The notes under the pieces are model-generated. The model was not told the DNA's origin. It searched no databases and saw nothing but the letters and a program-made list of their open reading frames with translations. Position numbers and translations under genes: made by a program. Positions 1-12,782 of a stretch of 64,000 nucleotides of DNA are shown one piece after another. The stretch comes from Haliotis cracherodii (lineage: Eukaryota), in the NCBI RefSeq assembly GCF_022045235.1, contig NW_027266280.1, positions 5,890,001 to 5,954,000 of the forward strand, in the 5' to 3' direction. How positions within the stretch are numbered: position 1 is the first letter of the stretch; every line of letters begins with the position of its first letter.

Positions 1-547
1 TTGTGGTTGTTGTAGGGACATGCAAAGCACTCCCTCATCCATTGACTTTTCGTATTTCCATTGTATCTGGTTGTGATTGGGTTTTTTCATGATTAAACAG
101 TGATTGATTGAACTGACTCTTTGTATCTTGATTGATCTCAACTCCAATAGAGTGCCGAACCGAGGGTAGAGGTTGAGTTGAGATGTCGTTGACGTTGTCT
201 GTCCGTCTGTCTGTCTGTGCATCTGTCATGTCAGTGCACACCCAAGTGTAAAATTAAAATAAAAAATAGATAAAAGAGAAAGGCCATGCTTGAAAGATCA
301 GCTGCCTGGTGTCGGTCATTCCAGTACGCATCGATCCCCACACCCCCTCCCCGTGTACCATGTCATGTCATGGATCGTGTCACGAATCATGCCGTGTGTC
401 CGTCAACCCAAACACAGGATGACGTCACGTGATGAGGTGGAGGAGGTGGAAGCTAAGGTCATGACCTTCCGTGGAAGGGAGTAGGGTGGAGAGTTTCATA
501 AAAGCAGGCGAACCCTCAGACCTTCTTTCAGTGAAGTCACCATCATC

Positions 548-1060
548 ATGGAGCAAAGACGTTCTATGAATGCCATGTCATCCTCCCGTGATGTCGTCAC
601 CGATTCCGAGTGGGTGTCTGAAAAGGCGAGAGAACAAGAAGCGAGAAAACGTTCCCTCTTTAGGGACGACACGTGGCGACTCAGTGACATTCTGGAGGGA
701 TCTTTTCCTTCTTACACCCTGTGTCATCCTTCTCATCCTCACTATGATTCATTTCAAGAACGTCTGAGATCTTTTAAAACGTGGCCTCAACAGATGACCC
801 AGACCCCGTATGACATGGCCATGGCTGGCTATTTCTATCCAGGACAAGGTGATTGTGTGACCTGTTATTGCTGCGGTGTGGCACTCCGCCAATGGGAAGC
901 CACAGACCAACCCTGGAAAGAACATCTGAAGCACGCCAAAGTGCCCTGCGAATACTTGTGTGTGTTTTGTCCTGATGGAGAAGTGAACGAAAAATACAGA
1001 CGTTTGGTGTCCCAAGAAGCACGGAAGAGAAGAGTCGAGTGTCTTGTTCACCCCAAGTGA
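548..1060 (+). CDS. Single-BIR inhibitor-of-apoptosis (IAP)-like protein, no RING
   Basis: Intronless 170-aa ORF with the BIR signature RLRSFKTWP...MAMAGYFYPGQGDCVTCYCCG...W...D.PWKEHLKHAKVPC (CxxC...H...C zinc ligands). Confidence 0.92.
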   Translation: MEQRRSMNAMSSSRDVVTDSEWVSEKAREQEARKRSLFRDDTWRLSDILEGSFPSYTLCHPSHPHYDSFQERLRSFKTWPQQMTQTPYDMAMAGYFYPGQGDCVTCYCCGVALRQWEATDQPWKEHLKHAKVPCEYLCVFCPDGEVNEKYRRLVSQEARKRRVECLVHPK

Positions 1061-1113
1061 CAACGTTTCTTTTTTTTCAAAGTGTACAGACGTTCATACC
1101 CCCAGTGTTCACA

Positions 1114-1150
1114 AAAGTCACAGGGACGGCCCCCTCATCCTGTGACTTTT
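1114..1150 (+). terminator. Hairpin downstream of the IAP gene
   Basis: Perfect 12-bp inverted repeat AAAAGTCACAGG...CCTGTGACTTTT about 55 nt after the stop codon, followed by a T-rich tract. Confidence 0.4.
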
Positions 1151-1297
1151 TGTTTTGCGGTGTTGGTTCATGTGAGCGAGGGGATTAAATTTTTTTTAAA
1201 AACCCATAGTCGTGTTCTGTGGTCTGTAGGATGAAGAAAAACAAAACAGGATTGAAATGCACACCCCGATAAAAAAAAAAAAACCGGATCGAAATCG

Positions 1298-1542
1298 GAC
1301 CAATCCGAAGCCTGGGTTGTCGACCAATCAGAGACCGTGCTCGGGTCAAGCGGGACTCTGAATGGTCGAACCGGGGTTGTGCTTTCTCTCCCATGGTAAA
1401 ATCCATTTCCTATGGAAAAGAAACACAGGGGTCGGTCCGTTTTGGAAAACCGAGGTGCAGACCAGGCCCCGAAACGAACCAATCGGGGGCGCGGCCTGGG
1501 GAACCAATCAGGAAGGTGGGTGTCAGTACCTCTCCTATAAAA
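1298..1542 (+). promoter_or_regulatory. Pol II promoter: four CCAAT boxes plus TATA
   Basis: ACCAATC at about 1300, 1323, 1478 and 1503, and TATAAAA at 1536-1542, upstream of the zinc-knuckle ATG. Confidence 0.65.
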
Positions 1543-1590
1543 AACAAAACAAGAGCGAAGCCACTCACACACACACACACACTGCATTCT

Positions 1591-2193
1591 ATGAAACCCA
1601 TCATGCCAGCTCGATACAGTTGTATGAAGTGCCAGACCGACAGTCACAGTTACCTGTACTGCCCTGAAGTGACATGCCTCGAGTGTGGCACTCAAGGTCA
1701 CCGTCACTATGTCTGTCCGAAGATGAACAGTCAAGAGAAGCAGGAGAATCGGAACCTGGGTCCCTGTTACAACTGTGAAGCCATGGGTCATTTCGCTGCA
1801 GATTGCCCAGAACCCAGTCGAAAGAAGACTTCCCATCGCCTGGACCACTGTTACAACTGTCAAGCCCTGGGTCATTTCGCTGCAGATTGCCCAGAACCCA
1901 GTCGAAAGAAAACGTCAGCAACACCGTCCACGTCGACACCCGTGACACCCGTGGCACCCGTGACACCCGTGACACAAGTGGTTCATCTCATCGAAGACGT
2001 GCACGTCGATGTCCTCGACCTAAAAGAATGCCTCGCACAACTCCGGGCGGACATCACACCTCTTGTAGAGAAAAGAAAACGGGCCAGAAGCCTCTCAAGA
2101 AAGCACGCTTCAAAGCGCCGACGACACCTTCAGTCCGAGGATGAGATGGAAGTAGAGGATGAAGAAGAGAGATCATCTGAACAAAGTGACTAA
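1591..2193 (+). CDS. Four-CCHC zinc-knuckle nucleic-acid-binding protein with basic NLS and acidic tail
   Basis: Four Cx2Cx4Hx4C knuckles (CMKC, CLEC and two CYNC; the last two are an 81-bp direct duplication), a TPV repeat, KRKRARSLSRKHASKRRR and an E/D-rich C-terminus. The start was placed at ATG 1591 because TATAAAA lies at 1536, although the ORF is open from 1393. Confidence 0.8.
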   Translation: MKPIMPARYSCMKCQTDSHSYLYCPEVTCLECGTQGHRHYVCPKMNSQEKQENRNLGPCYNCEAMGHFAADCPEPSRKKTSHRLDHCYNCQALGHFAADCPEPSRKKTSATPSTSTPVTPVAPVTPVTQVVHLIEDVHVDVLDLKECLAQLRADITPLVEKRKRARSLSRKHASKRRRHLQSEDEMEVEDEEERSSEQSD

Positions 2194-2505
2194 CGCATGG
2201 GACCATGCTACCCCACTGTTTTTTACCAGTGTCCCATCGTTTGCAGTTTTTCCAGTGTTCCAGTGTTCCAGTGTTCCTGACGTTTCCTGTCGTTTCCAGT
2301 TTCCAGTTTCCAGTTTGTTTTCCAACGGCCCTTTTCAGGGCCACCCATCTCTCCCGAAAGACAACTTTCCTCCTTTGCTTTGACGACCCTCCCACCCACC
2401 CACCCACACCATGAACCCGTCTCCTCCTCCTTTCCTTCCTCCCTCCCTCCCTCCCTTCACCACCACCACCCTCCCTCCCTCCCTCCCTCCCTCCACCATC
2501 GCCAC

Positions 2506-2720
2506 CCCCTGGAGGCGCGCGCCACCGGACACGGAAGCGCCACCCTCTTGGAGGCGCGCGCCTCCGGACACGGAAGCGACGCCCTCTTGGAGGCGCGCGC
2601 CTCCGGACACGGAAGCGACGCCCTCTTGGAGGCGCACGCCACCGGACACGGAAGCGACGCCCTCTTGGAGGCGCACGCCACCGGAAACGGAAGCGACGCC
2701 ATCTTGGAGGCACACGCGCA
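2506..2720. repeat. 39-bp GC-rich subterminal tandem repeat (about 5.5 copies)
   Basis: Unit CTCTTGGAGGCGCGCGCCACCGGACACGGAAGCGACGCC; TGGAGG recurs at 2510, 2549, 2588, 2627, 2666 and 2705. Confidence 0.95.
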
Positions 2721-2743
2721 GAGTCCCATCATGCACTGCGCAG

Positions 2744-2852
2744 GTCACGTGACCGGAAGTGACGTCACAGAGGATGTGCCGCCATCTTGGTTCCATAATC
2801 CTGAGTGGTTCCATAATCCTGAGGTGGTTCCATACCGAGGTACTTAACTACT
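2744..2852. promoter_or_regulatory. Terminal motif cluster (E-box, ETS, CRE, YY1, three GGTTCCATA repeats); candidate origin/promoter
   Basis: GTCACGTGAC, CCGGAAGT, TGACGTCA and GCCGCCATCTTG, then GGTTCCATAATCCTGAG repeats immediately before the ACTACT end. Confidence 0.55.
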
Positions 2853-3762
2853 CACATTTTAGTCATTTACTCGTAAAGAGGTTCATTACGGTAGCCTTGT
2901 GGTTAAAGTGTTGTCTCATCATGCTGAAGACCCGGGTTTTCTGGAGTTCCCTGACTTGATATTGCTGGAATATAACTATAAGCGACGCAAACCATTCTCA
3001 CTCAAGGATATTTCATCCTTGCAAACGGGACAACAAAGGATGTCAGTGTATTGTCCTGATAGTACTGTCCAGTGACCTTTCCTTGCACAATATGGAGTGG
3101 AATTTGGTCAGGCACAGTGATACAACGCAACACCATTATCGATCCAACGCCGATCTCCCAAAAGGTCTCAGGTTGACCTTGTTTTGACGTTCGGCGTCGC
3201 CTACACGACCATGCCTATCAAGGAAGTGCAACGTGAAGGGAGACTCTAAAAACCCGACTCGACTACACACATTTTGGCTTTGTGTACAACCATTGACATA
3301 TGTGGGCAACATGACGATTTGTAGATTGTTGGTACCTGTTCCACAGTCTGTTTATCAAGGAATGTGAAACATTGAACATATTGGTCACTGCACGCTGACC
3401 TCTTGTCAGTTTCCAGCATCAGAGTAGCCTGTAGACGTTCTATGTGTCCTAGACGTTCTGTGTGTCGTAGACGCCACATTGCTAACTCATTCAGATACAA
3501 TAAATCTAATCAAGTAAATGAAAACTGTATGAGAAGCAGAGTCGTTAAGATTGACAGGGATTAATCGATTTTGAAAGTATCGACATAAGGAAAGACATCC
3601 CACACACGTGTACAGAATGTGTATTGGTGTTAAGTTCTACAAACATAAATATTCTTGCTCATCTCTGTGCCAGTGCGTGATTTTAAAATGTATATCTTTC
3701 ATCATCCCCTACTGTTTTTAAAGTGTTGGTACAACAAATATGTAAATTGTGATTTCCTTTAC

Positions 3763-3854
3763 CTGCCATCGAAAGTCAGCATATGAGGATCACACACAGC
3801 ATGGCATGCCTTCCCAACGTTGATATTTGTATAGCCGTCCTTTGTCACCTCCAC
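3763..3854 (-). CDS. Gene A exon beginning a von Willebrand factor D domain (KACHAVCDPHMLTFDGR)
   Basis: TTTACCAG acceptor (phase 0), GTAAAG donor and the C-x4-DPH-x2-TFDG VWD start motif. The gene must continue to the left. Confidence 0.88.
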
Positions 3855-4669
3855 CTGGTAAAGATAGTTTAAGTTGTGGCAGTATCACAAGAGGTATATG
3901 TGGTTTTGGAAGACCAATTCTACCCCGGATGGACAAGGGTCCCACATTCTAGAAATCATATTAAGTTTCATCAAATTCCAACTATGAATGCTCAAAATAT
4001 TAATAGATTTATTCATGAATATCATCCAAGCACATTCAAGAGCATTACTTGTTTCAAACATGTATCAAATGCGCAGTTCCAGAAAATACTTTCATAAATG
4101 AAGACATTCAGTGTCAATGTTTTGATATTTGACACAATCATGACATGGCATGAATTGAGTCGTTAATAGTTTATTGTTTTGGGAAATGCTCTGTCTTTAA
4201 TGATAAATCAGGTATTTCCTACATGTAGTAATGTTTTATAATTGATATTGTAATGTGTCAGTGTATTTGATTGTTGAACAATGATTGTAACTGTATTACA
4301 TTGTTTCTTTCGATTCGATAGAAGCTCATTCCATTGTATTTGGATGATTAGTTGTTGTGAATGTAGTACTATTTAATGTAAGCAGTAGTGAAGTAGTTAC
4401 TACAGTTTAATGCTAGTGTGATGTGTTAACTTCCGGAATACCTTGGACTGAGATAGAGCGTTATTGAAACATGTGGAATATTCTATGTTGTGATGGCACT
4501 GTGTGGAAATTTAAGTTTGGAATATTTGTTGATTTTTTTGTTGGTTTACACTAAATACCTTGACGTACAGATTTCTGGGTCAACGTATTGTTTGAATTTG
4601 GGAATCGACACGTAACAATATATATTGACCTCGACCTTATATGGAGGTCACTCAAAAGTGACCCATCCA

Positions 4670-4932
4670 TTCCGTGAAGATCTGGGGTAGGATAGATCTT
4701 CACCAACCCATGCTTGCCATAAAAGGCGACGATGCTTGTCGTAAGAGGTGACTAACGGGATCGGGTTGTAAGGCTCGCTGACTTTGTTGATGCATGTCAT
4801 CGATCCCAATTGCGTGGATCGATACTCATGATGTCAAGCACTGGAATGTCTGGTCCAGACTCGATTATTTACAGACCGCCGCCATATCGCTGGAATATTG
4901 ATAAATGCGGCGTTAAACAACAAACAAACAAA
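4670..4932 (+). mobile_element. SINE-like family B (no tRNA head); other copies at about 30042, 34644, 48184, 53855, 54626, 55780 (-), 58742 and 59783 (-)
   Basis: Begins CCGTGAAGATC, contains GTCGTAAGAGGCGACTAACGGG, and shares the CTGGAATATTG...GCGTTAAAC(AAAC)n tail. Confidence 0.85.
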
Positions 4933-5451
4933 CCTGAATGACCTTGAATATCATTGAATCCCTTTCTTGAAGCAATACTTCATATCATAGGTCGATGACC
5001 TTGTAATTTGGTACAACAATAGTACATGAGAATAATAGAGACAGTTATTTAGAGTCTGTAATATGATCGTAAAATTCTTTCAATTTCATGAAGTTATCTG
5101 AACTTGACACACGTAAATCACGTTGTCGCGCACACTAACATTTTCGACGGTTCAAACCCTTGTATTCATTGTTTTGAATCATCGGAGTTGTTTTATACTG
5201 ACACGACCTTTTCCCTTTCTTGCTTTATTGTACCTGAAGTGTTTGGAGTAATTCAAAGATTTGCCTTTTTCAAGTTTGGAAAATGTCAGGAAGGTGCTTA
5301 TTTTAAAGACTTCATGGTTTAGCGGAAGATTTCCAAACTGTGCTGAGGCGATATATGCCACATACAGGATCACATACAGGTTCACAGACACGTGCTTGGC
5401 AGCCCCAATCCGGTCGAGCCCAGTAAATTGCATTTGTATGGTAACATTATA

Positions 5452-6823
5452 TACTGAACAACAAAAGTTCCTATGATAATGAATGAGATTTAATGCAAAG
5501 TTACGTTTTTTACCAAATCTGAATTCAGAAAATGCGTGATTTCATAAAATTCATAAAAAAACATGAACATGCCAAAATGTCAAGTCAATAGCGTGTGTCA
5601 ACCACCACTGCAATGCAAGCAACACATCTTCGTCTCATGGAGTCCTGTGGGATATCGGTCCATATCTGCTGGAGCATGTTTCGAAGTTCCTGGAGTGTCT
5701 GTGAAACACGTGGTTAACGTCGAAGGCGCCAATCCATCTCATCCCACATGTGCTCGATTGGTGAGAGATCAGGGGAGCGAGCCGGCCAGGGGATGACATT
5801 CACATCGATTTGTTGAAGAGAATCCTGAACAGGTCGAGCAATATGATGCCGGGCGTTGTCATGTTGAAAGGTAATGCCTGGGCCATGACGACGCCAAAAC
5901 GGGCCGATGATCTCGTCGCGATAGCGCTGTCCATTGAGATTTCCCTCTAACACTATCAAACGGGTCCTCTGTCTTGCTGTAATCCCACCCCATACCATAA
6001 CGCTGCCGCCCACGAACCGATCTTCTTCCATGACACAATGATTGACGTAACGTTCACCACGACGTCGGTACACTCTTATCCGTCCATCGCTGTGGCTGAG
6101 ATGAAAAGGAGACTCGTCAGTGAATAGAACTTGTCGCCACTGCATGGCCATCCAGCGTAGACGCTGTCTGCACCACTGTAGACGTGCTTGACGGTGGTTT
6201 TCTTCTAGCGACAATCCCTGCACATCTGAGGCGTTGACGTACGGATTGTGAAGATATTCGTCGAAGGCCAGGGATGCTTCTTGCAGTCACTGTTACTGGC
6301 TGGAATCGATTTCGTAGGAGTGTTGTTCGAATCCATTTGTCTTGTGGATTATTGGTTACGCGTGGCCTGCCACTCTGAGGATGGTCTCTGAATGCATTCG
6401 TCTGTTGCCAACTTTGCCATTAATACCAAATGGTGTTTCTGTGGACGTTGAATTGTCTTGCAACATCACGTTGACTCGATCATGCTTCAAGCATACCAAT
6501 GGCTCGCAGACGCTCATTTTCGGACAGGCGTGGCATTAAGTATTGTTGAAAAATTGCGTAATTGTGTTGTTTTTCTGAGTGGTTGTTGTCAGCACAATGC
6601 TAAACGATGCATATGGAATCCCGTTAACGCACATGTTTTTATACCTGTTCTTAGGTAGTGAAATGCATGAGGCTTGCATAAAAGTCAACTGTTGCATGGA
6701 ATGCATGCTTTTCTGCAGCAGTTGTGTTTTTGTGACTTGATTCCATACATGTACTACAATATTGAAAACCAAACTTTACTTGTTTGAAAAATACACAAAA
6801 ATATTGGTGTTTGTTGTTGAGTA
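5452..6823 (-). mobile_element. Tc1 (DD34E) DNA transposon, degenerate
   Basis: FTDES...FQHDNA...WPARSPDLSPIEH with 34-residue D-E spacing; TACTGAACAACAAAAG TIR; frameshifted. Confidence 0.93.
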
Positions 6824-7725
6824 TTCGTTGTAGTGGGGTATCACTAGGGTTTTCTATTCGACAGGTTTTATAACACTATCCTCAGGCGACTGCTATAAGA
6901 CGAGGGCAAACTCCATGTGAATTTCGTATCTCTTCGAATTCTATTCTTCCGCTTGCAAATGTATTTCCTTCCCAGTCCGAATACGTAGTATTTTATCAGG
7001 ATCACGCGAAACAATCAGATCTCCACTTTCAGATAAAAATGGAATATCAGCTTAATGTGTAAGGAAAGAACGAAGTGATGCACTTTTGCGACTTTTGTGA
7101 AACCTCACCAGCATACGTATTGTGGTGACAAACCATTGAATGAACTCACGTTGAACAAATATGACCATTGAAATCAAGATGGAGAAGAATCAAGAAGGGA
7201 ATAAAATATTAGTACACGATTACACGAACTCGTGAAGATGAATTATGATAGAAATGGTCCACAGTAAGCTGTGCCTGTCGTGAGATGCAATTAATGGCTC
7301 TGTTGCTCAGGATCGGTGACTTGGTACGCACCCTGTTGCTCATAAATGTACATTACCAATGCAAGCGAATTACTAGTCTAGATTATCCACCGAAACAGAT
7401 TCCATTTGGTATTCAGGGCAAAATAGCTGTGAACATTTATGAAAGGAAATAAGTGATGATAACAGCTGTTCGCGAAAAGGGTAAGCATGTCCTGTCGTAG
7501 CACCCGCCATTCACACAATGTTCGTAAAAAAGTTAATATTTATTGCCTGTGGCCGAACAGCAGTACTGTTGCCATGCAACGGCAGCCTGTGAGCTAGCAA
7601 TACCAATCATGGGCAATACACACAGACATGCATACATACATACACATGCACATACTCTCTTTCATGGCAGTCATGAATTCATTGATTGATGATATAAGCA
7701 TAAGCACACAAGGCATACAAAACTA

Positions 7726-7899
7726 CAGTCAACTACGTTTATGACGAACATGCTTATAAGGAACTGACGAATATAACGAACTTATTTTTAGTCCCGGCCA
7801 TTGACTGTATATAAGCTGTATATATGCTTATAACGAACTTCGGTTGTAACGAACTATGATTAGTGGACCCTTTGTGTTCGTTATAACCGTATTTTTCTG
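7726..7899. mobile_element. Tc1/pogo-type MITE
   Basis: TA-CAGT...CTG-TA ends with internal TATAACGAAC repeats; same family as 39640-39814. Confidence 0.75.
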
Positions 7900-8226
7900 T
7901 AATTGATTGCATCAAACATTTACAGTTTTTTATATATAATCTGTAAAAGTGCATTAAATGTTATTTGTTTACTTATTTTGGAATATTTTCTGCCATATTG
8001 TTATGAGAGATATGGTAAGATATCATGGTCAACTGCATTTAAAGCTTTTTCTTCACACAAAACTGTTTTTGTAGAATTATTAGCTTTGGATTCAGATAAC
8101 AGTATTGCTCTTTCTTATTCAAAATCATTAAGATGCAAATATCGAAATGTTCACGCGATATTATTTAATATCATCATATTCTTAGTTTGACGCTGAATCT
8201 TACAATCTACAAGGACAATTACTCAC

Positions 8227-12345: not shown

Positions 12346-12782
12346 GACCGCCTCCGTGGTCTAATGTTAGAGCGTCCGCCTGGAGAGCGGAAGGTCCGGA
12401 GTTCGATCCCCAGCCCCGTCATACAAAAAGACGTTAAAAGATGGTACTTGTTGTTACCCTGTCTGGCGCTCGGCATTAAGGGGCTAAAACAAGGATTGGT
12501 CGGCTCGGAGTCAGTATAATGTGTCTGAGTGGAGTATTCATGGTTAACTGCGGCATGGTATCTCACTGTGGTAGTGCTATAAATCGGCATNNNNNNNNNN
12601 NNNNNNNNNNNNNNNNNNNNNNNNNNNNNNNNNNNNNNNNNNNNNNNNNNNNNNNNNNNNNNNNNNNNNNNNNNNNNNNNNNNNNNNNNNNNNNNNNNNN
12701 NNNNNNNNNNNNNNNNNNNNCGTCTCTATATAAATGCAATAATCTTGGACGCGACGTTTAACCCCATTTCACCTCACCTCAC
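12346..12782 (+). mobile_element. tRNA-derived SINE family D spanning the gap; other copies at 56120-56432 (-) and 61038-61350 (+)
   Basis: GTGGTCTAATGTTAGAGCG A box, GTTCGATCCC B box, (CACCT)n tail and TSD ACATGCATGTTAT. Confidence 0.88.
12591..12720. other. Assembly gap (130 N)
   Basis: N run inside a SINE D copy; intact copies suggest that less than 130 nt is really missing. Confidence 1.

Follow-up and report, generated by a model that had tools for sequence, protein, structure and literature searches.

Architecture of the element at the window edge

Here, we present an analysis of a Maverick/Polinton-family element that reaches into the left edge of a 64,000-nucleotide stretch of the genome of the abalone Haliotis cracherodii (assembly GCF_022045235.1, contig NW_027266280.1, positions 5,890,001 to 5,954,000; the whole stretch is referred to as the window), and of its relatives in the same assembly. 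We use segment A for the polymerase-type element of about 11-12 kb to which the window's copy belongs, segment B for a capsid/integrase-type element, and type C for gene-less palindromes. An earlier note on the window had proposed a polintovirus with an inhibitor of apoptosis (IAP) module beside its terminal inverted repeat (TIR). The terminus, the subterminal GC-rich repeats, the BIR and zinc-knuckle open reading frames (ORFs) and the break in GC content to which it pointed are all present in the sequence, and the BIR2 and zinc-knuckle genes are real. The element itself, however, falls short of a complete Polinton. The features within the window are the following:

1..2852, plus strand: right-hand 2.85 kb of segment A; the gene for the protein-primed family B polymerase (pPolB), BIR1, ORF160, ORF178 and the left TIR lie outside the window, to its left (stretch L001)
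257..318, plus strand: about 60 bp, 89-90% like the sequence just upstream of the segment B ATPase gene
548..1060, plus strand: BIR2, a 170-aa single-BIR protein without RING (PF00653, E 1.6e-20; C-X2-C-X16-H-X7-C intact)
1260..1545, plus strand: putative promoter-like cassette; contains four CCAAT boxes and a TATAAA motif
1591..2193, plus strand: zinc-knuckle protein of 200 aa (PF00098, E 1.4e-12; four CX2CX4HX4C motifs; basic stretch, acidic tail)
2324..2852, minus strand: right TIR, 529 bp with 1 mismatch to the left copy, of a family that also bounds segment B and type C
2505..2717, plus strand: 39-bp GC-rich subterminal array within the TIR
2847..2852, plus strand: ACTACT terminus (AGTAGT on the opposite strand)
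2853..2858, plus strand: 6-bp target site duplication (TSD) CACATT, directly after the terminus and matching the left end

GC content is 51.7% in positions 1-2852 and 40.3% in positions 2853-8000. The 39-bp repeat is present in six registered copies at 2466-2756, the four core copies matching one another at 89-100%. A second repeat, of 18 bp, is present twice at 2788-2823. The 14-nt terminal pattern alone is within chance for the window (seen in 26/100 shuffles), unlike the paired TIR and TSD, which exceed chance. As the earlier note had anticipated, a search of the same genome found the inverted left TIR copy (529 bp, 1 mismatch), which begins AGTAGTTAAGTACC and is preceded by CACATT; it starts at C17:5881053, which is 8,948 bases before the first position of the window. 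The whole element (G000:C17:5881053-5892852) is 11,800 bp long, with 529-bp TIRs and the TSD CACATT on both sides, and has the AGT-repeat ends, long TIRs and 6-bp TSD of Mavericks/Polintons (Eupolintoviridae).

Segment A contains BIR1 (152 aa, likewise a single-BIR protein), pPolB (1416 aa), ORF160, ORF178, BIR2 and the zinc-knuckle ORF. The polymerase, also anticipated to the left, is an intact 1416-aa ORF (PF03175, E 2.6e-35) that keeps the exonuclease and polymerase motifs, so that segment A supplies the protein-primed family B polymerase of a Maverick/Polinton; at 21 loci, the frame stays open over 1426-1433 aa, uninterrupted by stops. BIR2 and BIR1 contain the BIR domain PF00653 (E 1.6e-20 and 1.1e-22, respectively) with intact zinc ligands, and the matches of BIR2 in the PDB are the BIRs of NAIP, XIAP and DIAP1. 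Baculoviral IAPs carry a RING domain; this domain is absent from the BIR1 and BIR2 ORFs. The BIR proteins would plausibly damp host apoptosis. ORF160 (160 aa) and ORF178 (178 aa) had no Pfam match at the cut-off, and ORF178 had no usable match in the protein atlas; the two come after pPolB at L001:8732-9813, and ORF178 includes CXXC pairs as well as a stretch resembling LxCxD. The CCAAT/TATA cassette, of about 330 bp, recurs at 75-92% before most segment A genes (window 1260-1545; L001 1903-2232, 3571-3903 and 8270-8500) and partly in segment B.

ORFs for an integrase, an ATPase, a protease and a capsid protein were not found between the TIRs of the window's element. The earlier note had expected all four within 15-25 kb to the left; they are instead on the separate segment B, which has the same TIR. 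Since a Maverick/Polinton has its polymerase and integrase together on a single element of 15-40 kb, the one at the window edge is by itself an incomplete Polinton, and a complete 15-25-kb Polinton at this locus was rejected on account of the 11.8-kb span without integrase or capsid. Likewise rejected was a herpesvirus or a pair of single-copy host genes: in A copies of every age, BIR2 and the zinc-knuckle ORF are found at the same position. Four old A variants (L049, L052, L057 and L138) are without these two genes and end in sequence resembling the A left arm. Outside the element, a fragment of a Harbinger-type transposase (DDE_Tnp_4, E 7.6e-9; L001:229-564) lies about 500 bp left of the insertion, and window positions 12591-12720 are a run of 130 N unrelated to the element.

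Segment B carries the integration and virion genes

Segment B is 10.2-10.6 kb long, has the same TIR as segment A and has no polymerase. Its ORFs encode an ATPase, two unknown proteins, an rve-chromodomain integrase, a small hydrophobic protein, a penton protein, a basic 127-aa protein, the major capsid protein (MCP) and a protease. The integrase (rve PF00665, E 8.2e-12, with a chromodomain and D-D-E motifs) and the ATPase (Pox_A32, E 2.4e-6) are on B only, and the protease has the H/D/C motifs and a weak match to Peptidase_C5 (E 0.037, below cut-off). The predicted fold of the MCP (pLDDT 90) best matches the double jelly-roll MCP of Sputnik (E 2.5e-17) and also matches the PBCV-1 MCP, while that of the penton protein (pLDDT 86) matches the Sputnik, mavirus and adenovirus pentons (E about 1e-8). 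Thus, the rve integrase, the ATPase and protease, and the double and single jelly-roll capsid proteins of Mavericks/Polintons are all found on segment B only. The six core ORFs checked in one copy (L017/L018) are all full length.

Census of copies and joined fossils

Among the first ten other TIR pairs examined, five were A, three were B and two were non-coding. A 19-nt terminal pattern (at most one mismatch) matched the assembly at 34 forward and 35 reverse sites (controls, 8 and 9), from which 34 pairs, all 8.1-11.9 kb long, and one orphan were obtained. By matches to pPolB, MCP and integrase (INT), 24 of these pairs are A, six are B, four are neither and none is both. The proposal of a young, mobile Maverick/Polinton-family element in a mollusc is borne out, the element being multicopy and the closest named proteins coming from Haliotis. 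When termini were ignored, same-family MCP or INT lay within 25 kb at 3/107 pPolB loci (117 matches minus seven split pieces and three sister-family matches), and the other module lay within 25 kb at 3/73 B-gene loci. Two of these three pPolB loci are decayed joined fossils; the third is a derivative of A that is bounded separately by TIRs and a TSD and lies 18 kb from an old B-type copy. Junctions are alike across ages, and both layouts persist in three age classes, older copies keeping the A/B split.

Direct inspection covered 52 pPolB-bearing and 35 B-gene stretches. Among them, polymerase and capsid module were joined in four copies, all decayed (L037/38, L039/40, L125/126 and L127). In the other 31 B stretches, a TIR was present upstream of the ATPase side in 20, and the remaining stretches gave no call. 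The joined fossils have pPolB, 74-84% identical to the window's copy, followed by the co-oriented ATPase-to-protease block, with BIR1 upstream in one of them; the counterpart of window positions 257-318 sits before their ATPase gene. Together with one further copy, they form one polymerase clade (support 99-100), and a search of this assembly with the joined-lineage pPolB found no young member. Their polymerase is at a synonymous divergence (pS) of 0.16 from old A, while their B-type genes are at only 0.03-0.05 from old B.

The four pairs classified as neither are type C elements, i.e., gene-less palindromes in which the ATPase-side end of segment B is combined with tandem repeats; every one of them has TIRs and a TSD, and they look like snap-back defective genomes. 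They are 8.7-9.9 kb long:

L014, C6:36.13M
L019/L020, C7:14.79M
L101/L102, C9:0.38M
L103, C14:15.72M

Two other Polinton families, of 16.5 and about 21.5 kb, were assembled whole in the same genome, arguing that the A/B split is not an assembly habit. One is an intact monopartite sister Polinton of 16.5 kb with the TSD GTCGTC (L082:1016 to L083:7513; C4:10273016-10289513), in which pPolB stands head-to-head with the ATPase-to-protease block and a BIR ORF lies near one end; its identity to the split family is 54% for pPolB and 49% for MCP. The other, here called the third family, is also monopartite and measures about 21.5 kb; it is present in many young copies that are nearly identical (L084-L086, L087-L089, L096-L098), has a BIR ORF, and its divergent pPolB includes an endonuclease VII domain. 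A further element has integrase and ATPase in an inverted duplication (L094/L141, L143/L144, L147/L148, L145/L146, L151), with copies that lie inside an A copy (C1:41.92M) and next to a member of the third family; polymerase or capsid genes were not seen in the stretches of it that were examined. The terminus, TSD, pPolB and BIR are as predicted for an ordinary complete Polinton with IAP cargo, or for one broken by an assembly artefact. We nonetheless consider this explanation highly improbable, because the TIR-to-TIR interval has no integrase, ATPase, capsid or protease, 24 A and six B copies lie on many contigs with their own TSDs, and the other families were assembled whole.

Segments A and B share terminal inverted repeat types

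Three TIR types were identified, and each occurs in both A and B: old A and old B share one type, and middle-aged A and B share another. In a tree of 43 ends, from which 10/53 ends without the anchor motif, mostly from old copies, were left out, there are 12 changes of segment type and 2 of age class. A single clade of A ends was rejected by the approximately unbiased test (p-AU 2e-5), as was a single clade of B ends (7e-8). Thus, TIR variants follow age and not segment type. In 23/30 elements, the left and right ends agree in every base over 50 nt, while 18 terminal variants exist among elements; this pattern would be expected from the evening of ends in linear, protein-primed replication, which is known from the adenovirus-like mechanism. 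In bipartite and multipartite viruses, complementary genes are distributed over separate molecules that have common ends, and this is also the arrangement of segments A and B.

These data bear on the idea that A and B are independent satellites, each using other monopartite Polinton families of the genome. The intact sister family and the third family, which has young copies, have termini that begin AGTAG, and selection on the A polymerase and the B capsid genes (see below) would also be expected if each element served itself. However, the termini of these families differ from the A/B TIR past the first 5-6 bases, whereas a TIR of about 500 bp is common to A and B and, across three age classes, its variants pass from one segment to the other, for which repeated co-replication of A and B is needed. 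We consider the use of these other families as helpers by each element a poor explanation.

Target site duplications and purifying selection

A perfect 6-bp TSD was scored by script in 28/30 elements with both ends, and the other two show one on separate inspection. Integrase-less A, polymerase-less B and gene-less C are all flanked by 6-bp TSDs; because this includes A and C, integration occurs in trans.

The core genes of both segments are under purifying selection. Variants common to at least three copies were taken as having arisen while the lineage was active. For these, dN/dS was 0.26 for pPolB (155 synonymous and 140 non-synonymous variants), 0.19 for MCP, 0.22 for INT, 0.17 for the ATPase and 0.26 for the penton gene, compared with 0.56-0.82 for private variants; the values are simple counts without transition correction, so that the neutral level is below 1, and four B-type copies grouping with the joined fossils were among those used for the shared variants. 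Between old and young A, pPolB had a dN/dS of 0.31 at pS 0.098. With the joined-grouping copies left out, the comparison of oldest with young B genes gave dN/dS of 0.06-0.29 at pS 0.04-0.12. The earlier note had taken the IAP module as suggesting an infectious cycle; the best hint of such a cycle would rather be the purifying selection on the segment B capsid genes.

Selection also bears on the possibility that A and B are long-lived defectives of a full-length helper of the same family that is absent from the assembly or was missed in it. From the four joined fossils, it is clear that there once was a full-length form, gene-less type C proves that elements with the A/B TIR are moved in trans, and the candidates were scored in part. 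Against these points, 0/34 TIR pairs hold both modules, the joined copies are all decayed and the joined-lineage search gave no young one, the junctions are constant across ages, and defectives fed by a helper would not need the purifying selection seen on the B core genes and the A polymerase. We regard a full-length helper as unlikely, though worth keeping in mind.

A probable bipartite Polinton complementing in trans

Altogether, we suggest that A and B are probably the halves of a bipartite Maverick/Polinton that complement each other in trans. In a cell with both, the protein-primed polymerase of A would copy linear DNAs that have the shared AGTAGT TIR at their ends, the integrase of B would insert any DNA bearing this TIR, and the ATPase, capsid proteins and protease of B would package it. 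TIRs would likely be exchanged between A and B during co-replication, type C palindromes would likely ride along as defective genomes, and the BIR proteins are predicted to act on the host by damping apoptosis. The split likely arose from a monopartite ancestor, of which the four decayed joined copies would be relics or close kin. The joined polymerase being farther from old A than the other genes are from old B fits a stepwise path, in which A may have come first, as a capsid-less replicon, and B later by polymerase loss, the pair outlasting the parent.

A fuller version of this proposal is finely balanced in our view: an integrating bipartite dsDNA virus of the double jelly-roll lineage, with replication and host control on A and integration and the virion on B, each segment being packaged and transmitted, in which the monopartite ancestor was displaced and one abalone genome recorded both the transition and its palindromic parasites.

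Several observations weigh against a bipartite virus. The survey covered one assembly, with a terminal pattern that was derived from ends already seen and misses variants, and the candidates scored were 111/406 for pPolB, 95/374 for MCP and 99/2053 for INT. Three B copies (L029, L031 and L033) share one TSD and hence are not independent. The four joined copies exist, and because their polymerase is more distant from A than their B-type genes are from B, the origin need not have been a single clean fission. Moreover, the root of the pPolB tree is unstable, in that free trees disagree and A monophyly is not rejected (p-AU 0.66); the joined fossils could be sister to all A or nested among the oldest A copies, and could thus reflect re-fusion. 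Other families with their own polymerase and integrase could supply helper functions. Finally, the segment B protease has too few changes for a judgement by dN/dS, and the accessory genes of segment A are weakly constrained (shared-variant dN/dS of 0.49 for BIR1, 0.41 for BIR2 and 0.81 for the zinc-knuckle gene, with 10-14 synonymous changes each).

Relatives in other species

The closest named proteins are from H. cracherodii (MCP 99%, pPolB 98-99%) and H. rufescens (MCP 98%, pPolB 92%); the H. rufescens copy of BIR2 (90%) was the only close match in the search for BIR2 homologs. The viral contig collection contained no relative of the segment B MCP. Sequencing runs gave 17 matches in 8 studies with four organism labels; no RNA run was listed among them, which says nothing about expression. 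Contigs of two other organism labels cover 30/30 bins of an A copy in pieces too short to tell the split, and a raw-read run on an A copy gave mostly partial matches (955/974) and was uninformative.

In H. asinina (MCP 74%, pPolB 47-52% identity), 10/13 listed polymerase proteins have an MCP at most four accession numbers away, on a contig of the same length. This species may hold a monopartite relative; this is only a hint, since one consecutive H. cracherodii accession pair had no polymerase in the 10-kb stretches around its MCP. Proteins of 151 aa annotated as caspase-2-like (P0264, P0266) cluster with the Polinton polymerases of H. asinina, hinting at another apoptosis-related cargo gene.

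Comparison with known systems

Like the Mavericks/Polintons (Alpha-class adintoviruses, Eupolintoviridae), the split family has a PF03175 pPolB, an rve integrase, an A32/FtsK-like ATPase, a penton protein, an adenain-like protease, a double jelly-roll MCP, long AGTAGT-ended TIRs, a 6-bp TSD and IAP-like accessory genes (PMC8502044). Unlike the described members, in which the core genes are on one molecule (PMC8502044), these genes are here on two separately integrated elements that share a TIR. Because IAP homologs have been reported in adintoviruses (PMC8502044) and both ordinary monopartite families of this genome carry a BIR ORF, IAP cargo is not the novelty of the window's element.

A bipartite Polinton was not found in the literature searched; supplements, Repbase and subscription papers (the original Polinton/Maverick descriptions and the vertebrate Maverick survey) were outside reach, and a prior mention is possible there. 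The available parts of PMC11071308, 10.1101/2023.08.22.554363 and PMC12567637 do not mention split Polintons, and the animal multipartite viruses listed in a 2016 review, as far as its available part goes, are ssDNA and RNA viruses only, polydnaviruses being excluded (PMC5094692). Screens in which polymerase and capsid genes must occur together on a contig will overlook split Polintons or give them the wrong label.

Repbase holds non-autonomous Polintons. PolB-less Polinton elements occur in insects (10.1101/2025.02.07.637071), and such derivatives, like those described here, lack core genes and are moved in trans; type C is of this kind. Unlike non-autonomous Polintons, A and B are exactly complementary, purifying selection acts on the two of them, and the assembly yielded no full-length form that is young. 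The A, B and C elements provide sequence evidence for Polinton polymerase and integrase acting in trans.

The Bidnaviridae (Bombyx mori bidensovirus, PMC4061559) and the Drosophila Vesanto virus (PMC8363768) similarly have a Polinton-derived pPolB and at least two segments with shared TIRs, and bidnavirus segments are packed separately (PMC4061559). However, these viruses have ssDNA, parvovirus-like capsids and no integrase (PMC4061559, PMC8363768), whereas the family described here has a double jelly-roll module, an integrase and germline-integrated copies of each segment; defined by ssDNA, a parvovirus-like capsid, a superfamily 3 helicase and no integrase, the Bidnaviridae do not include it. 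The Acheta domesticus segmented densovirus resembles A and B in having replication and structural cassettes on separate segments and monopartite ancestors but is a non-integrating ssDNA parvovirus of another realm (PMC10267136). In A and B, germline integration of each segment has left a dated record of both halves, joined relics and gene-less parasites in one genome. In a published model, two complementary defectives displace their monopartite parent (PMC10223652), and the A/B record makes this model testable on natural sequence.

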